Source: a virus. From it: a stretch of DNA of 6,220 nucleotides. The notes under the pieces were generated by a model, which ran no database searches, was not told the origin of the DNA, and saw nothing but the letters and a program-made list of their open reading frames with translations. Of the stretch, positions 1-6,211 are shown one piece after another. Both the position numbers and the translations under genes were made by a program. Within the stretch, counting starts at the first letter, position 1, and each line of letters opens with the position of its first letter. The stretch is taken from the UHGV virus genome UHGV-0187156; one strand, 5' to 3'.

Positions 1-261
1 ATGATTCGTATCGAGATTTTAAAATCAGATATTACAACACGTTCTTTTACTTCAAATGGAAAGGACGTAACTTTTTTTGAGCAAACAGCCTACATTCATC
101 TTGGTGATGATTATCCGGCTAAGTTTTCATTAACTCTGCAAAAAAACCAGCAGGCTTATGCACCCGGTGACTATACTGTACATCCTGGTTCTTTGCGTGT
201 CGGTAATTATGGTTCGCTTGAGTTTCAGCGAAATGTAATTTTAGTACCACTAAAACAATAA
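1..261 (+). CDS. V: ssDNA-binding protein (gene V protein family)
   Basis: 86-aa ORF. Recalled similarity to M13 g5p (MIKVEIK...QPAYAPGLYTVH...FGSL...LVPAK versus MIRIEIL...QQAYAPGDYTVH...YGSL...LVPLK here). First gene of the morphogenesis block. If circular, the AGGA at the window end sits 7 nt upstream of this ATG. Confidence 0.88.
   Translation: MIRIEILKSDITTRSFTSNGKDVTFFEQTAYIHLGDDYPAKFSLTLQKNQQAYAPGDYTVHPGSLRVGNYGSLEFQRNVILVPLKQ
63..75. repeat. degenerate motif copy GGACGTAACTTTT (right half-site intact)
   Basis: Inside gene V, encoding KDVTFF in the same frame as the other copies; the left arm diverges. Confidence 0.45.
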
Positions 262-266
262 CCGCC

Positions 267-437
267 ATGATTTTTTCTTTCTGCAATATTGAAACTAAAG
301 CCTGTAATGATTTTGACTTTAACATAGTCATTTCAGGTAGTAATTTCGGTATGTTTGAAGGTTTTTTAATGGTGATCGGCGCTTTCCTTATGGGGTTCGC
401 AATAGGCCATATATGGAAGACAATATTAAGACTTTAA
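267..437 (+). CDS. small hydrophobic minor coat protein, pVII/pIX-like; start uncertain (267, 351 or 369, all in frame)
   Basis: 56-codon ORF beginning 5 nt after the gene V stop with no SD, as in Ff gene VII translational coupling. Hydrophobic core GFLMVIGAFLMGFAIG with basic tail; DFDFNIV loosely recalls the ADFDTIY segment of M13 pVII. Lies between V and VIII, as VII/IX do in Ff. Confidence 0.4.
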   Translation: MIFSFCNIETKACNDFDFNIVISGSNFGMFEGFLMVIGAFLMGFAIGHIWKTILRL

Positions 438-458: not shown

Positions 459-611
459 ATGGAACCTACAAACGCACTGGCTGGACTGCTTAACGCAATT
501 AATTTTTCTGATCTGATCGCAATCATGGTGGGTGTCGGTACAGCCGGTATCTCATTCATTCTCGCTGTGGTTGGCGTGAAACGTTTCTGGACTCTGGTCA
601 AAGGTATTTAA
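459..611 (+). CDS. VIII: major coat protein (pVIII-like), 50 aa, no obvious cleavable leader
   Basis: GGAG at 447-450, 8 nt before the ATG. Acidic N-terminus (E, D), continuous hydrophobic core (IAIMVGVGTAGISFILAVVGV), basic C-terminus (KRFWTLVKGI) as in DNA-contacting tails of inovirus coat proteins. Followed immediately by a strong terminator, as gene VIII is in Ff. Confidence 0.72.
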   Translation: MEPTNALAGLLNAINFSDLIAIMVGVGTAGISFILAVVGVKRFWTLVKGI

Positions 612-651: not shown

Positions 652-665
652 ATAACGGTGATGTC

Positions 666-725
666 ATGTTTATTTTAGGAATTATTCTTGCACTTGCGTT
701 TATTGCTGGTCTTACGATGAGATAA
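666..725 (+). CDS. hypothetical 19-aa hydrophobic peptide (MFILGIILALAFIAGLTMR)
   Basis: ATG at 666 with GGTGA 5 nt upstream; stop TAA at 723-725, 5 nt before the gene III ATG. Entirely hydrophobic apart from the terminal R. Too short to call with confidence. Confidence 0.25.
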   Translation: MFILGIILALAFIAGLTMR

Positions 726-730
726 CCACT

Positions 731-1966
731 ATGACTACAAAAAAGTTACTTTTGCTCGGTTTATTACTTACCAGCTTTAGTGTTATGCCTTTTATTCAAT
801 TTGCCTATGTCGGAGAATCTTTAATCTCTGCTGGTCTTGGTCGTCTTTTTGCCTCCCGAGCTGCAACAGCTGCAACAGGTGAAGTCTTTACGAAATTACT
901 ACAAAGTACTGTTGCTTCCTCAAAGGCAATAATACAAAAGAACCTTTCAAATATTCCTTTAAAGTCAGCCTTAAGAACCGCTGGCGGTGGTACATTCCTT
1001 GCCGTTCTCGGTCAATCTGGAATCTCTATTTATGACTACTTCACAAACGAAAAAGTAACTTTTGACGGTAATCTAACTGATGAAAATTTAAAAGTAAGTC
1101 GTCCATCTGAAAACTCTTTAGGTGAACTTAAAGAATGGAACGGCACATTTATAGATCTTGTAACTGCTGAGGGAACCTCAGTTCGTGGATATCCGCAGCC
1201 ACCACTACTCAGGAAAGAAACATCAAGCAGATACGCTATTTATTCAGCAACGACTGATCCGAGACTTCAGGAGTGGATACAGAGCAGCAGTCCTACAATT
1301 TTCTCAAACTCCTACGTTCAACAGCCTGACGGTAAGGCGGTAAAGATGGATCTCTATCGTTACCAACGAACCTTCAAGACAGGTGAAACTGTAGACGTGC
1401 CGAAATTGTCGGATAAGGTGACTGGATCGGTTGCTGATGTCGTACCGAAGTCTAAGCTTGAAGAAACCGTACCGATTGATGTTCTTACGGATATGGTGAA
1501 CTCGATAACGCGAAACATTGAGGCTGATGCGACTTATGAGGGTGTATCTTTCCCTGATGTCTGGACTCGCGATCAGGTAGCAGCTGCTTTCCCTGGTGTC
1601 CGCTGGGTAGATTTAGTCAGGCCAATTGAAAAAGACATTCCTTCGATTCCGGTAATTAGCACACCTAATGCGGATGTTGTTCCTGACTGGGGAACTTCCC
1701 CAGATAATGGCGACCTTTCAGATCCTGAGGCGCCACCAATTTCCTCGATTATTCAGCCTTTCAAGATAATGCAGACTGATATAAATAACAGGCTTGGTTT
1801 TAATATTCCTGCTGGTGAATGTCCTGTGTTTACTGTGAACTTCTTCGGAAAAATAAAATCAGACAATACATTTTGTGAATTCATGAATAAGTACGCTGGC
1901 GTGCTTAGGGCAATTTTCTTAGCAATGTCATCAATTCTTGCTGTCCGTATTTTCTTAACTGCATAG
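731..1966 (+). CDS. III: minor coat / adsorption protein (pIII-like)
   Basis: 411 aa. N-terminal signal-peptide-like segment (MTTKKLLLLGLLLTSFSV), C-terminal hydrophobic anchor (AGVLRAIFLAMSSILAVRIFLTA), size and position match Ff gene III. N-terminal receptor-binding part not recognisably Ff-like, as expected for host-range domains. Confidence 0.75.
   Translation: MTTKKLLLLGLLLTSFSVMPFIQFAYVGESLISAGLGRLFASRAATAATGEVFTKLLQSTVASSKAIIQKNLSNIPLKSALRTAGGGTFLAVLGQSGISIYDYFTNEKVTFDGNLTDENLKVSRPSENSLGELKEWNGTFIDLVTAEGTSVRGYPQPPLLRKETSSRYAIYSATTDPRLQEWIQSSSPTIFSNSYVQQPDGKAVKMDLYRYQRTFKTGETVDVPKLSDKVTGSVADVVPKSKLEETVPIDVLTDMVNSITRNIEADATYEGVSFPDVWTRDQVAAAFPGVRWVDLVRPIEKDIPSIPVISTPNADVVPDWGTSPDNGDLSDPEAPPISSIIQPFKIMQTDINNRLGFNIPAGECPVFTVNFFGKIKSDNTFCEFMNKYAGVLRAIFLAMSSILAVRIFLTA
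741..753. repeat. dispersed motif copy AAAAGTTACTTTT (perfect)
   Basis: Exact 13-mer, 10 nt downstream of the gene III ATG (codons 4-8). Confidence 0.9.
1051..1063. repeat. dispersed motif copy AAAAGTAACTTTT (perfect; extended 19-nt identity with the 3211 copy)
   Basis: Exact 13-mer inside gene III, encoding NEKVTF in frame. AAACGAAAAAGTAACTTTT is shared with 3205-3223. Confidence 0.9.
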
Positions 1967-2261: not shown

Positions 2262-3241
2262 TGGCTATAAACCTCTATGTGGGCCTACAGGGCGCTGGTA
2301 AATCATACGAAAGTGTAAAATCCGTTGTCCTCCCAGCTCTTGCTCAGGGACAGCGTGTTGTATCTAATATTGAAGGTCTTGATTCTGAGAAGGTATACGC
2401 CTATGTAAAAAAAATATTTAAGGTAGATGAATCATCAATCGGCGAGCTTGTGTATGTAGAAGACGACCTCATAAAGCGAGATGATTTTTTTCCAACTGAG
2501 GATGGTGATTCACAATACGTAAAATACGGTGATCTGGTTGTAATTGATGAAGCGTGGAGATTTTTTGATAGTGAAAGAACTCTGTTACCTAATCACAAAC
2601 AATTTTTCGGTATGTTGCGCCATTATGGCTGTCAAATGGCTGTCATTAATCAAACAAACGGTTTATGCAAAAGTCTGCTCGGTAGAATACAGACAACCTA
2701 CAAAATGCACCGTGCGTTTTCTGTCGGTTTTAAAACAAGGTACTCAATAATTAGTTACAGCGGCTCTGAGATGCGAAAGCAAGATATTTACAAAACTCAG
2801 GCTTTTCTAAAATACAACCCTGAAATATTCAGTCTCTATAAATCAGAAAAGCAAAAAGCAGCTACAAAACTAGATAAGAGACAAAATATATGGTCGGTAT
2901 TCGGTTTGTTATTACTAACGATCGGCGTGCTGGCTGTCTCTGCTACTTTTCTTTTTAAAAAATTCTACGGTGTGACTCCTGAACGCTCAGTTCCTGCGTC
3001 ATCTACTCCTTTACATCAACAAGTACCAGTGCCTACTTCGAATTTTATAGATACAACACAAAAAGCAACTTCCTACAGATATGTAGGTTTCTATCAGAAA
3101 GATAATCAGCGTTTTGCTCTACTGAGGGATGAAAATCAACTTCTAGTAATCATCCCTTACTCAAGATGCACAAATGAAGGTCGCCGAACCTCTTGTGAGC
3201 ATGAAAACGAAAAAGTAACTTTTTATGGTGGTGTGAAATGA
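2261..3241 (+). CDS. I: assembly ATPase (pI / Zot-like)
   Basis: 326 aa. Walker A GLQGAGKS near the N-terminus, Walker B-like LVVIDEAW, single transmembrane segment IWSVFGLLLLTIGVLAVSATFLF, periplasmic C-terminal tail. Stop overlaps the gene IV start (ATGA). Architecture recalled from M13 pI. Confidence 0.88.
   Translation: MAINLYVGLQGAGKSYESVKSVVLPALAQGQRVVSNIEGLDSEKVYAYVKKIFKVDESSIGELVYVEDDLIKRDDFFPTEDGDSQYVKYGDLVVIDEAWRFFDSERTLLPNHKQFFGMLRHYGCQMAVINQTNGLCKSLLGRIQTTYKMHRAFSVGFKTRYSIISYSGSEMRKQDIYKTQAFLKYNPEIFSLYKSEKQKAATKLDKRQNIWSVFGLLLLTIGVLAVSATFLFKKFYGVTPERSVPASSTPLHQQVPVPTSNFIDTTQKATSYRYVGFYQKDNQRFALLRDENQLLVIIPYSRCTNEGRRTSCEHENEKVTFYGGVK
3211..3223. repeat. dispersed motif copy AAAAGTAACTTTT (perfect)
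   Basis: Exact 13-mer at the 3' end of gene I, encoding ENEKVTFYGG, ending 15 nt upstream of the gene IV ATG. Confidence 0.9.
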
Positions 3242-4452
3242 AAAAAATACTCTTAACTATGACTTTTCTCTTAAACTCCTTTTTCGTGAATGCAACGAAT
3301 ATTGACTTCTCGATAACGGATGCAGGCCTTAACGATGTGATAACCCTCGTATACTCGGACATCTTAAAAAAGCCGTTTATGTTAGATCCTGCAATAGTTG
3401 AGAAACCACAAAAAGTTACTTTTTACTTCACAAAAAATCAGGACTTCGAAAAAACTTTTTATTCCTACCTGAACAGCCTCGGTTACGAAGTGAAAACAAA
3501 ATCAGGTGTCGATTTCATCAGGATTGCTCCTGAGCGTGTTATGGCGCCTCCAAAAACATACGTATACGTTTACCAACCTTTTCACCGTACTGTTTCTTAT
3601 CTTTCAGACATCATTTCGAATTCATTACAAAACAACTTTTCAACTGTAACCGGGATTGGTGATGGGAACATGTCGCCCGGAACTGTAGCACCGGATAGCG
3701 CCGGGCAGCTGCTTAGCAGAACTGGCGATAGACTTGTATTTAATGGCACTCAAGCAAAAATAGAAGAGCTCAAAAAGCTACTAACAGAAATTGATGTACC
3801 TAGTCAGTCAGTAGAGATAACCGGGTATCTATACGAGGTGGCCACAAATAAGAAAAATGGATCAGGTATGCAGCTTGCTGCAAAACTACTTTCCGGAAAA
3901 TTCAAGATCGGCATGGGTACAACACGGGGTTACAGTAACTTCATCTCTCTTTCAACGGGTAGTGTCGATGCTCTCTATGAGCTGTTCTCAACTGATAACC
4001 GGTTCACGGTTGTATCTGCTCCACGTTTGACCGTTGATTCTGGCGAGAAAGCATCTTTTGCCGTTGGTGATGATGTGCCTGTACTCAATACAACAACAAT
4101 TACAGATGGAACTGTACAGCAGGGGGTTTCTTATCAAAGCGCTGGTGTTCTCTTCAATGTTTCTCCGGTTGTTATATCATCAAAAATAAGACTTAACTTC
4201 TCCCAAGAGCTTTCAAGTTTCGTTGAGACAACAACAGGCGTAAACGACTCACCAACCAAAACAAAACGCACAATTCAAAGCGTTGTAACTGTAGACAATG
4301 GCTCTATCATTGTTGTTGGTGGGTTAGCTTCAAGAAAGAAATCTGATAACAAAACGGGTCTCAGTTTTTTGCCTGATATTTTTGCGCAAAATTCAGACTC
4401 TGATGAGCATACTGATTTGATAGCTGTCATTCAGGTAAGAAAGCTGGGCTAG
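3238..4452 (+). CDS. IV: secretin (pIV-like outer-membrane export channel)
   Basis: 404 aa with N-terminal signal-like sequence. C-terminal region matches recalled M13 pIV secretin motifs (VVSAPRLTVDSGEKASFAVGDDVPV versus ILSVPRILTLSGQKGSISVGQNVPF; VVGGLASRKKSDNKTGLSFLPDI versus LLGGLTDYKNTSQDSGVPFLSKI). Confidence 0.88.
   Translation: MKKILLTMTFLLNSFFVNATNIDFSITDAGLNDVITLVYSDILKKPFMLDPAIVEKPQKVTFYFTKNQDFEKTFYSYLNSLGYEVKTKSGVDFIRIAPERVMAPPKTYVYVYQPFHRTVSYLSDIISNSLQNNFSTVTGIGDGNMSPGTVAPDSAGQLLSRTGDRLVFNGTQAKIEELKKLLTEIDVPSQSVEITGYLYEVATNKKNGSGMQLAAKLLSGKFKIGMGTTRGYSNFISLSTGSVDALYELFSTDNRFTVVSAPRLTVDSGEKASFAVGDDVPVLNTTTITDGTVQQGVSYQSAGVLFNVSPVVISSKIRLNFSQELSSFVETTTGVNDSPTKTKRTIQSVVTVDNGSIIVVGGLASRKKSDNKTGLSFLPDIFAQNSDSDEHTDLIAVIQVRKLG
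3411..3423. repeat. dispersed motif copy AAAAGTTACTTTT (perfect)
   Basis: Exact 13-mer inside gene IV, encoding QKVTFYF in frame. Confidence 0.9.
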
Positions 4453-4519: not shown

Positions 4520-4532
4520 AAAAGTTACTTTT
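4520..4532. repeat. dispersed motif copy AAAAGTTACTTTT (perfect, intergenic)
   Basis: Exact 13-mer in the IG, directly after the polypyrimidine tract and before the C-rich run. Confidence 0.9.
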
Positions 4533-4569
4533 CTTCCTCCCCCCGTTTTCGTTGCCTCTGTGTCAATCG

Positions 4570-4605
4570 CTTAATCGTGGGGGCCCCTTTGGGGTTCCGA
4601 TTAAG
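4570..4605. repeat. nested palindrome: 8-bp outer stem around GGGGGCCCC and CCCCTTTGGGG
   Basis: CTTAATCG (4570-4577) pairs with CGATTAAG (4598-4605). The interior holds two mutually exclusive GC palindromes, so alternative folds are possible. Confidence 0.5.
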
Positions 4606-4640
4606 TGATTTACACCACTCCCCTTTTCATACTTCCGCCT

Positions 4641-4792: not shown

Positions 4793-4987
4793 CTAACTTT
4801 TTTTTTCGGCTAAACTGCTGAAATATGCCTCCGTACCGTCAAGGTCGCCGTTTTCCATCAGGTATAATGCAAGCTGAGTCCAGGTGATGCTTTTCTTGTA
4901 TGCGAAGCTAAGTTCAATTGCTTTTTGCTCTAGCCGTTTCTTAGTCGATAACGGCACCCGCATTGAGATAGTTTTTTTTGTATTCAT
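4793..4987 (-). CDS. hypothetical small DNA-binding protein, ribbon-helix-helix-like (candidate transcriptional regulator)
   Basis: 64 aa (MNTKKTISMRVPLSTKKRLEQKAIELSFAYKKSITWTQLALYLMENGDLDGTEAYFSSLAEKKS). Minus-strand context AGCAGGAGGATTC-ATG gives an AGGAGG SD 4 nt before the start. N-terminal basic strand (TISMRVP) followed by two predicted helices fits the Arc/MetJ/CopG ribbon-helix-helix layout. Divergent from gene II. The longer start at 5053 in the ORF track lacks an SD. Confidence 0.5.
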   Translation of the reverse strand: MNTKKTISMRVPLSTKKRLEQKAIELSFAYKKSITWTQLALYLMENGDLDGTEAYFSSLAEKKS

Positions 4988-5092: not shown

Positions 5093-6211
5093 ATGTACTT
5101 TTTTGATTGGCTAGACATCTCTCAGGATTTTGGAACGGATTTACCCATCAAGAGTGATTTAGTGTATCTGCGCCTCAATACAGTAACTGGTGAGCATGGG
5201 GCTGTGAATCAACCAACCATCCGCCATCAGGGCAGTTTTTGCGATCAGCTCATGATAAGCCTTAAGGGCTCAGAATTGCGCGTGTCCGGGAACCCGTCAC
5301 GCTGGGGTCGTCTTGATAATCTGTTTGGTCATGCCACAATTGATCAGTGTGTAGCTGTATATAACGGGGTGCTTCGGTCTATGGGGTTGCCTGAATTTAC
5401 CAAATGTACAAAAACACTTGTCGTACAGGGTGACAGTAACGAAAAAGTAACTTATACCAGCAATGGTGCGATGATAAGAGAAATTCACATCACCACGAAT
5501 ACGGCTGTTGGTCAGGGGAATGTGCTTGATTACATAAAGGCATTAAGCACTCAGAGATACAGAAACTCTACTCCCTATCTGTACCCTAATGGTCGCTCTG
5601 TTGATTGGCGCACCAAGTCAGGTAGTACAAGCCTTGTTTATCCGACCGTTTACGATAAAGCAAATAACCTTATTGATAAAAATTTAAATAAGATAATTAA
5701 GACTTTTGGCGAAAATTCGCAAGAGCATAAGTATTTAAAGAAACTAATTGAATATTGCCAAATCAACGGTGTAGTACGATTTGAGCAAAAGTTAAAAAAT
5801 GAATACCTTCGTAGAAACAATATGCGTTTCTGGGGTATTGCAAACTTTGATCACTTGGAAGTATTACAGAATCAATTCCTTGATATTGATCAGAAACTAA
5901 CGGTGACAGCCATGAACTTTGAAACTATCTCAGATCATCTTATTGCTGAAGGTATCGTAAACAATACAAAAGCCAGCATTACAACAGCTATGTATGCTTA
6001 TTTGTGGATGCAGGGTAAGGAATTTGATTTTTCAAAATCGTCAGTAAAAACGCATCGAGCACGCTTAAGAAAAATCGGTATTGATATTGCTATGCCTTGC
6101 AATATTTCCCAGTTCCAGCCAGTGGTGGTAAAAAATGTACGTCAAATCGAACGTCAGACATTAACCGCGCCAGCCTGGTATAAACAACCGCAATTCCTCA
6201 TGGCCGTCTAA
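5093..6211 (+). CDS. II: rolling-circle replication initiator (pII-like nicking endonuclease)
   Basis: 372 aa with AAGGTG SD 6 nt upstream. Recalled similarity to M13 pII (GVVRFEQKLKNEYLRR versus GLVRFEARIKTRYLKS). Positioned after the IG, as in Ff. Confidence 0.85.
   Translation: MYFFDWLDISQDFGTDLPIKSDLVYLRLNTVTGEHGAVNQPTIRHQGSFCDQLMISLKGSELRVSGNPSRWGRLDNLFGHATIDQCVAVYNGVLRSMGLPEFTKCTKTLVVQGDSNEKVTYTSNGAMIREIHITTNTAVGQGNVLDYIKALSTQRYRNSTPYLYPNGRSVDWRTKSGSTSLVYPTVYDKANNLIDKNLNKIIKTFGENSQEHKYLKKLIEYCQINGVVRFEQKLKNEYLRRNNMRFWGIANFDHLEVLQNQFLDIDQKLTVTAMNFETISDHLIAEGIVNNTKASITTAMYAYLWMQGKEFDFSKSSVKTHRARLRKIGIDIAMPCNISQFQPVVVKNVRQIERQTLTAPAWYKQPQFLMAV
5443..5455. repeat. dispersed motif copy AAAAGTAACTTAT (one mismatch)
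   Basis: Inside gene II, encoding SNEKVTYT. Shares the extended left flank AACGAAAAAGTAACTT with the 1051 and 3211 copies. Confidence 0.75.
5912..6211 (+). CDS. X: pX-like protein from an in-frame internal start within gene II
   Basis: In-frame ATG at 5912 preceded by GGTGA (5902-5906). Product begins MNFETISD, comparable to the MNIYDDSA start of M13 pX. Ff gene X is the C-terminal third of gene II translated independently. Confidence 0.45.
   Translation: MNFETISDHLIAEGIVNNTKASITTAMYAYLWMQGKEFDFSKSSVKTHRARLRKIGIDIAMPCNISQFQPVVVKNVRQIERQTLTAPAWYKQPQFLMAV

Follow-up and report, generated by a model that had tools for sequence, protein, structure and literature searches.

Comparative analysis of the inovirus genome UHGV-0187156 (6,220 nt, complete-looking, referred to here as the window) indicates that the gap between the terminator of the major coat protein gene (gene VIII) and the start of gene III almost certainly holds a genuine, previously unannotated gene, judging from its codon-level conservation among related lineages. 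The open reading frame (ORF) of 19 codons would encode a hydrophobic peptide that is probably a member of a family of tiny proteins encoded beside the gene III start in inoviruses of Beta- and Gammaproteobacteria. On the fuller reading, in which the gene is translated into an inner-membrane peptide with a minor role in capping or assembling the virion and also feeds the translation of gene III, our judgement is evenly balanced.

The ORF opens with ATG (666-668), continues for 18 sense codons and ends with TAA (723-725), giving MFILGIILALAFIAGLTMR, in which T17 and R19 are the only polar residues, and a 5-nt spacer (CCACT, 726-730) separates the stop codon from the gene III ATG at 731. The first-pass annotation of this DNA had described a hydrophobic 19-codon ORF preceded by a GGTGA Shine-Dalgarno (SD) sequence and ending 5 nt before the gene III ATG, and both its coordinates and its content were confirmed. 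The placement of the ORF behind the gene VIII terminator was borne out by a scan that supported the terminator, a stem of eight pairs, five of them GC, with a T tail, the hairpin of which is kept in all three closely related lineages considered below and which is the sole strong RNA structure within positions 612-790; lying 3' of this terminator, the tiny ORF belongs to the gene III transcription unit. Gene III, for which that annotation had noted a weak SD, was found to have no SD of its own: GAG at 719-721 is the only purine-rich stretch ahead of its ATG, no other SD-like motif was detected 5' of position 731, and the spacer contains no GGAG-like motif in any of the three lineages. The ORF carries no annotation in the RefSeq record of a related Citrobacter element (NZ_CP073051.1) and none of the gene calls made for 17 related contigs includes it.

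Regarding coding selection, a search with the gene I protein recovered three close lineages only, namely the window (lineage A), the Citrobacter sp. MGH105 "plasmid" CP073051, also present as an IMG/VR contig (lineage B), and a Klebsiella pneumoniae lineage (lineage C), the next relatives having at most 37% gene I identity. The gene I proteins of lineages B and C are 89% and 86% identical to that of the window; nucleotide identity between A and B is 82% over the whole genome, and per gene it ranges from 79 to 90% for A and B and from 73 to 87% for A and C. In the alignment of the junction between genes VIII and III the peptide is identical in all three lineages, and nine of the 11 variable columns in the 60-nt ORF are third codon positions, the remaining two being the first base of a Leu codon (CTT to TTA, synonymous) and the first base of the start codon, which is changed from ATG to TTG in the Klebsiella lineage with GGTG and TAA retained. 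At least 12 substitution events took place in codons 2-19, all of them synonymous (P ~7e-8, on the basis that 25.3% of the possible single-base changes in these codons are synonymous), and in the other five frames there are either stops or 3-10 variable residues. GGTG is retained in the three lineages, each of which has its own 4-5 nt between this motif and the start codon (ATGTC, CAACC and AAATC); likewise ATGAGATAA is invariant and the spacer before gene III varies (CCACT, TCATT and TAAAT). With 100% identity, compared with 76-97% for the other nine proteins of the genome, the peptide is the most conserved product.

Since every substitution in codons 2-19 is synonymous and scans for RNA folds, Rfam families and promoters offered no non-coding explanation, we conclude that the ORF is under purifying selection as a protein. 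A scan of metagenomes for AFIAGLTMR followed by a stop returned one contig, from the window's own lineage, and no further lineages. Two other readings of the same nucleotides were considered and rejected. An N-terminal extension of pIII or a frameshift fusion is not supported, as the gene III frame is open through the ORF but has no start codon and shows nine variable residues among the lineages; as for an antisense ORF, the one reverse frame that is open has three variable residues and lacks a qualifying ORF of 20 aa or more. Conservation in related phages, which the first-pass annotation had proposed as a check, was found both in the identical peptide of the three lineages and in a family of tiny proteins in distant relatives.

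The two GenBank metagenomic inoviruses Dulem virus 52 (PP511687.1) and Inovirus D_HF5_61 (OR148978.1), whose gene I proteins are ~34% identical to that of the window, both have a tiny hydrophobic ORF behind the gene VIII terminator with a GGTG-type SD, encoding MTWQMIFFIWGLLCAYVVIRGIDG (6086-6160) and MLWDFAYFLLGMVCGLVVVLGLNG (6231-6305), respectively. The tiny ORF is unannotated in both records, and the annotated gene III starts (6124 and 6236) lie inside it in another frame, which represents either a real overlap or mis-set gene III starts.

For a wider survey ~160 loci with gene I relatives were taken from IMG/VR and GTDB genomes, and genes III, VI and I were located in 136 of them; among the hosts are Haemophilus, Mannheimia, Rodentibacter, Klebsiella michiganensis, Undibacterium, Pandoraea, Cupriavidus, Vogesella and Deefgea. 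When the small ORF of greatest hydrophobicity beside the gene III start was taken from each locus, the products proved to be one protein family of these Beta- and Gammaproteobacterial inoviruses, which have a Zot-type gene I and a DUF2523-type gene VI; its consensus is M..N.LWYL.IFAWGIVC[AG]WAV[IV].GL[RK]G, and the tiny protein of Dulem virus 52 is among its members. A hidden Markov model (HMM) built from 68 distinct members and applied with a threshold of 15 bits detected a member in 107 of 126 usable loci (~85%), the gene I proteins of which are 27-37% identical to that of the window, a census that is partly circular for the 68 seeds. About 12 of the other 19 loci have a different tiny hydrophobic ORF, the stop codon of which overlaps or abuts the gene III start.

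Among 95 non-redundant loci the family proteins are 22-31 aa long (mode 28) and start with ATG in 89 cases; an SD-like motif precedes 71% of them, compared with 17% of random positions, and a strictly defined terminator lies no more than 110 nt upstream in 31%, compared with 1.2% at random positions. An overlap of 30-70 nt between the tiny ORF and gene III occurs in many relatives, and the stop codon and the gene III start are often overlapping or adjacent (distances of -4, -1, +1 and +2), including ATGA-type overlaps, these distances being approximate as the survey took the first ATG in the open frame as the gene III start. Searches of Pfam, NCBIfam and PHROGs gave no match to the family, which is unannotated in the records and gene calls examined, and a tblastn search of GenBank phages with the family consensus gave weak matches to Dulem viruses only.

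The tiny gene of the window has the same placement as the family genes, between genes VIII and III and directly 5' of the gene III start, which family genes either precede or overlap, and it has a ribosome-binding site of its own (GGTGA), as do most family loci. With hmmsearch the window peptide scored 7.8 bits against the family HMM, a score reached by 30 of 20,000 composition-matched shuffles, and hhalign aligned the peptide with the family over 17 columns at a probability of 86.7% (P 4.4e-6), with far lower values for the controls f1 pVII (14.6%), f1 pIX (3.2%) and the profile of the Vibrio phage protein ORF29 (2.6%). A gapless alignment over the whole length of the peptide with the K. michiganensis member (prophage L110, 4363-4440, MGWEMIFFIWGLVSAWAIIVGLRGL) sets FFIWGLVSAWAIIVGLRGL over MFILGIILALAFIAGLTMR, with eight of the 19 residues identical. 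The invariant family columns G15 and G25 and the near-invariant F12 (alignment A2) correspond to G5, G15 and F2 of the window peptide, so that both have a G-x9-G-L pattern with G15-L16 in register.

Unlike the family, the window peptide has L4, L8 and L10 at the positions of the conserved Trp before the first Gly, of Cys or Ser three residues after it and of Trp or Tyr five residues after it. It also lacks the polar or acidic N-terminal segment of the family, is 19 aa long rather than 22-31, ends in ...TMR where the family ends in ...GL(R/K)G, and its gene does not overlap gene III. The absence of the Trp and Cys residues and of the N-terminal segment, together with the length of 19 aa, would make it a truncated and divergent member at best, and from the profile comparisons it is probably the shortest member of the family and one devoid of Trp.

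The peptide combines ~17 hydrophobic residues with a C-terminal Arg and contains two small-xxx-small packing motifs (G5xxxA9 and A11xxxG15). It is predicted to form a single transmembrane helix without a signal peptide and, by the positive-inside rule, its N-terminus is likely to face outwards and the C-terminal Arg inwards, as in pVIII, pVII and pIX. In the mechanism that we propose, low levels of the peptide would be made from terminator read-through transcripts of the unit comprising genes III, VI, I and IV; the peptide would insert in the inner membrane unaided by a signal peptide, oligomerise via the small-xxx-small motifs and, together with the small membrane protein ORF56 encoded between genes V and VIII, be built into the virion as a cap or assembly protein present in few copies, taking the role of pVII and pIX with its terminal Arg facing the DNA. 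Ribosomes ending at the TAA codon would reinitiate 5 nt downstream at the SD-less ATG of gene III.

The assignment of a cap role draws on the architecture of the Ff phages. The round tip of f1 is built from pVII (33 aa) and pIX (32 aa), each a single helix devoid of a signal sequence, and pVII is in contact with the DNA hairpin through its C-terminal Arg33 (PMC10175506). The terminal Arg has been described as a hallmark of pVII, and many integrative filamentous phages seem to be without pVII and pIX, leaving open how their assembly starts (bioRxiv 10.1101/2023.12.30.573655). The window has two small membrane proteins besides pVIII, ORF56 and the tiny peptide, and an equivalent pair of a larger small ORF (ORFx) and the tiny protein was found in five of six loci of relatives that were inspected, the exception being the K. 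michiganensis prophage L110, which has extra small ORFs. As pVII and pIX likewise form a set of two, functional counterparts of these proteins are the most economical reading of the pair. ORF56 begins with MIFSFCNIETKACNDFDFNIV and has two Cys residues in its N-terminal part, a C-terminal transmembrane helix and a basic tail (HIWKTILRL); its amino acid identity is 86-95% among the three lineages, although it is not called on any contig of the window's own lineage, and it shares its architecture and position with ORF81 of the Vibrio phage VGJphi and with the ORFx of distant relatives (85-98 aa). ORF56 probably acts as a second minor coat or cap protein, in partnership with the tiny peptide.

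The pVII/pIX-like tip protein put forward by the first-pass annotation is thus the functional guess with the best support, drawn from the predicted helix, the C-terminal Arg, the presence of two small proteins and the comparison with ORF29, although no profile match to pVII or pIX accompanies it. The notion that such a gene had been relocated is misleading, as the position before gene III is the norm in a large inovirus clade. The broader proposition, that the tiny family supplies the missing cap protein of the leading end, which would bind the packaging signal and act as the functional pVII of most non-Ff inoviruses, is put forward tentatively, as we consider it somewhat more likely to be wrong than right.

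Several observations weigh against a cap role for the window peptide or against its place in the family. The homology of a hydrophobic peptide of 19 residues rests on modest statistics (p 0.0015 by shuffling), and the close group consists of three lineages. The peptide had no Pfam or PHROG match at E values up to 1, including the pVII (PF19978 Inovirus_G7P_2 and phrog_7781) and pIX (phrog_10143) profiles, in a scan that used the peptide with one extra N-terminal residue (window 663-722) and in which f1 pVII as a positive control matched both; nor did it match the profile of the ORF29 family. It contains no acidic residue, so that the acidic N-terminus of pVII is missing, and the C-terminus of the family is not consistently basic, as GLES, GIDG and GISN occur besides GLRG and GLKG, which means that a DNA-contacting Arg is not a family-wide trait.

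The location of the gene in the unit of genes III and VI, behind the terminator, fits a role at the pIII/pVI end of the virion equally well, and the tiny protein could accordingly be a component of the terminating end, acting with pIII and pVI as a third partner or serving pIII as a membrane chaperone. In the window as in 107 of 126 relatives the tiny gene is placed directly 5' of gene III, often so that its stop codon overlaps the gene III start, which would favour production matched to that of pIII, and the variable C-terminus of the family is consistent with such a role. However, the pointy tip of f1 requires pIII and pVI only (PMC10175506), and ORF56 alone would remain for the leading end. 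We regard a role at the terminating end as rather unlikely, even though it is the best of the alternatives to the cap role.

Tiny hydrophobic peptides act as membrane regulators or toxins in Enterobacteriaceae, examples being Ibs (18-19 aa), KdpF and MgtS, and the window peptide is of similar size. It might therefore act outside the virion, as a modulator of the host envelope or of export through pI and pIV, or in superinfection exclusion, and strong conservation would fit any specific membrane partner. Against a non-structural peptide stands the invariant position of the gene within the structural module, between genes VIII and III, across a huge clade. A type I toxin would be expected to have its own promoter and an antisense RNA, but no promoter-like site was found on either strand between positions 400 and 800 and no Rfam small RNA or antisense family covers the ORF, which is embedded in a phage structural operon; PHROGs, Pfam and NCBIfam gave no matches either, PADLOC not being among the libraries searched. 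A non-structural function is thus less likely still than one at the terminating end.

Regarding the possibility of a pure leader, in which the act of translation matters and the peptide has no function, the geometry fits in all three lineages, with the stop codon 5 nt before the gene III ATG, no SD for gene III and an invariant ATGAGATAA, and translational coupling into gene III is plausible in the window. The leader peptide suggested by the first-pass annotation agrees with this arrangement, but a leader without a function for its product explains neither a peptide conserved at 100% nor a family: no non-synonymous event stands against the synonymous ones listed above, no other product is as conserved as the peptide, and the family motif is kept across genomes whose gene I proteins are ~30% identical. 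In addition, the tiny ORFs of many relatives end 30-70 nt inside gene III, where termination-reinitiation is unlikely. As the peptide sequence is constrained and these ORFs end within gene III, coupling cannot be the principal function, and a leader of this kind is improbable.

A chance ORF, or conservation caused by a nucleic acid element such as an RNA structure, a promoter or a protein-binding site, is scarcely credible and, as an option left by the earlier annotation, is rejected by the codon-level conservation, for although T-rich sequence behind a terminator naturally encodes Phe, Ile and Leu and a complete ORF starting with ATG and having 19 or more codons occurred in 2.2% of 50,000 shuffles of the 77-nt gap, an equally hydrophobic one occurred in 0.012%, the variation follows a strict three-base periodicity with synonymous changes only, no significant RNA structure exists beyond the terminator (z -1.2), and neither an Rfam match over the ORF nor a sigma-70-like promoter site was detected.

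The features of the window are listed in Table 1, in which the domain assignments for genes VI, I and IV are taken from related contigs. The gene VIII product has weak PHROG matches to inovirus structural proteins. The exact gene I protein corresponds to a RefSeq "MULTISPECIES Enterobacteriaceae" entry and occurs on many contigs, mostly of ~6.2-6.4 kb, that come from isolates as well as from metagenomes of gut and wastewater.

Table 1. Features of the 6,220-nt window, with positions counted from its first nucleotide.
Feature	Position	Strand	Basis
Gene V	1-261		
ORF56, small membrane protein	267-437	+	
Gene VIII, major coat protein of 50 aa without leader	459-611	+	
Rho-independent terminator after gene VIII, AAAGGGGC-TTCG-GCCCCTTT and T-run	628-651 (hairpin 628-647)	+	
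Shine-Dalgarno-like GGTGA, 4 nt 5' of the ATG at 666	657-661	+	
Tiny gene, 19 codons and TAA, product MFILGIILALAFIAGLTMR	666-725	+	
Last two codons (ATG AGA), stop and 5-nt spacer; presumed reinitiation or weak-SD zone of gene III	717-730	+	inferred
Gene III, 411 aa, signal peptide MTTKKLLLLGLLLTSFSVMPF...	731-1966	+	
Gene VI, DUF2523 (PF10734)	1974-2261		
Gene I, Zot	2261-3241		
Gene IV, secretin	3238-4452		
Intergenic region with minus-strand regulator-like ORF	4453-5092		
Gene II	5093-6211		

Comparison of the window DNA with GenBank phages revealed no near or distant relative except for a 60-nt intergenic piece, and comparison with complete Escherichia coli genomes gave no match. The 60-nt piece (4561-4621) is ~89-92% identical to the Erwinia filamentous phages PEar1, PEar2, PEar4 and PEar6 and also matches ~96 enterobacterial plasmids (from Salmonella, Escherichia and others), mostly conjugative or mobilizable ones, in which it generally lies in unannotated DNA; it has the look of a shared element, either for single-strand initiation or serving as a complementary-strand origin. 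The same intergenic region contains a minus-strand ORF of 63-65 aa (4793-4987, MNTKKTISMRVPLSTKKRLEQKAIELSF...) that is called on all related contigs and for which no Pfam match was recorded; it looks like a small regulator of the ribbon-helix-helix type, divergent from gene II.

The 13-nt quasi-palindrome AAAAGT(A/T)ACTTTT is present in five exact copies, compared with 0.03 predicted by shuffles, located in gene III (741-753 and 1051-1063), gene I (3211-3223), gene IV (3411-3423) and the intergenic region (4520-4532), with near-copies in gene II (5443-5454) and gene V (66-78). It reads (N)EKVTF in three different proteins, and its sites keep their position in the Citrobacter lineage, whereas the Klebsiella lineage has degenerate versions (AAARGTNACWTTT); possible roles are a site for a DNA-binding protein of host or phage, or a site related to recombination or restriction. 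Within the window's own lineage, one ENA contig of 7658 nt (L010) carries transposase genes of the insertion sequence type (rve and HTH_Tnp_1) at 67-1295, adjoining the intergenic region. Gene III is called at 363 rather than 411 aa in this contig and in L011, followed by a gap of ~150 nt before gene VI, and L014 has the same gap of ~150 nt before gene VI, with the gene III call ended by the end of the contig; the three contigs seem to encode truncated variants of pIII.

Filamentous phages are already known to have tiny hydrophobic minor proteins, and one at the same position is annotated in VGJphi. What is new is a sequence family that neither the libraries searched nor the annotations checked contain, its very wide distribution, and its minimal version of 19 residues in an enterobacterial phage. 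A conserved micro-gene hidden in what passed for an intergenic gap before gene III provides a specific candidate for the cap or assembly component that seems to be missing, and the 19-residue version is easy to mutate, to synthesise and to seek by mass spectrometry. It also bears on annotation, which would be corrected in the two GenBank inovirus records inspected, where the gene III starts overlap the tiny ORF. If the cap role is correct, the 19-mer would rank with the smallest structural proteins known from virions and would define a minimal helix for capping a filamentous capsid, the family would have been overlooked because gene callers drop ORFs under ~30 codons, and a cap helix of 19 residues would be a new display or nanorod-capping module for phage-display engineering.

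Compared with known systems, the tiny gene of the window resembles the upstream leader ORFs of bacterial and phage operons in having its stop near an SD-less start, and differs from them in that no product of the genome is under stronger purifying selection than its peptide, contrary to what a coupling device alone would lead one to expect. The peptide is similar to pVII of the Ff phages in its C-terminal Arg, an F-x-L-G-I-I motif, the single hydrophobic helix and the lack of a signal peptide. The Ff genomes encode two such proteins, pVII and pIX, the expression of which is translationally coupled to neighbouring genes (PMC10175506), and the window likewise encodes two small membrane proteins. 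However, the Ff genes for pVII and pIX lie between genes V and VIII, upstream of the terminator, whereas the window gene lies downstream of gene VIII and its terminator, and pVII and pIX have 33 and 32 residues, an acidic N-terminus and a demonstrated location in the virion, pVII being present in five copies at the leading tip, whereas the window peptide has 19 residues and a putative place in the virion.

The closest parallel in gene order is VGJphi, in which ORF29 (MLIALHDIQLIIFALLGGMSGFIAALNFR) is annotated as a "putative minor capsid protein" and belongs to phrog_25361, "minor head protein", although this function is a positional guess; the literature on an experimental role of ORF29 or of comparable small ORFs yielded positional annotations only. 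Homologs of ORF29 are present in fs1, VEJ, VSKK, Vf33, Vf12 and others and are unannotated in most Vibrio inovirus records, and those unannotated (pattern MLxxLHDxxLIVFxLLGGxAGFxAxQNF[RK]G) were found in the loci L183-L185 and H66-H86, including Vf33, Vf12, VSKK, VALG_phi8 and V5. Homology of ORF29 with the window peptide or with the Beta- and Gammaproteobacterial family is not supported by profile comparisons: against the window peptide there was no PHROG match and hhalign gave 2%, and against the family it gave 2.6%. The terminator follows the tiny ORF in the Vibrio phages, placing it in the gene VIII unit, where a GGGGC...GCCCC-T hairpin lies 3' of the tiny ORF in VGJphi, V5, Vf33 and a V. 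cyclitrophicus phage, whereas in the window the terminator precedes the tiny ORF, which falls in the gene III unit. The ORF29 family nevertheless consists of single helices of 29-30 aa with a C-terminal end like that of the window peptide (FIAALNFR in ORF29, FIAGLTMR in the window), and ORF29 lies between ORF44 (pVIII) and ORF493 (pIII), the same position as the window gene. The modules of the two genomes are syntenic, with the order gene V, ORF81, gene VIII (44), ORF29, gene III, gene VI and gene I in VGJphi and gene V, ORF56, gene VIII (50), the 19-codon ORF, gene III, gene VI and gene I in the window.

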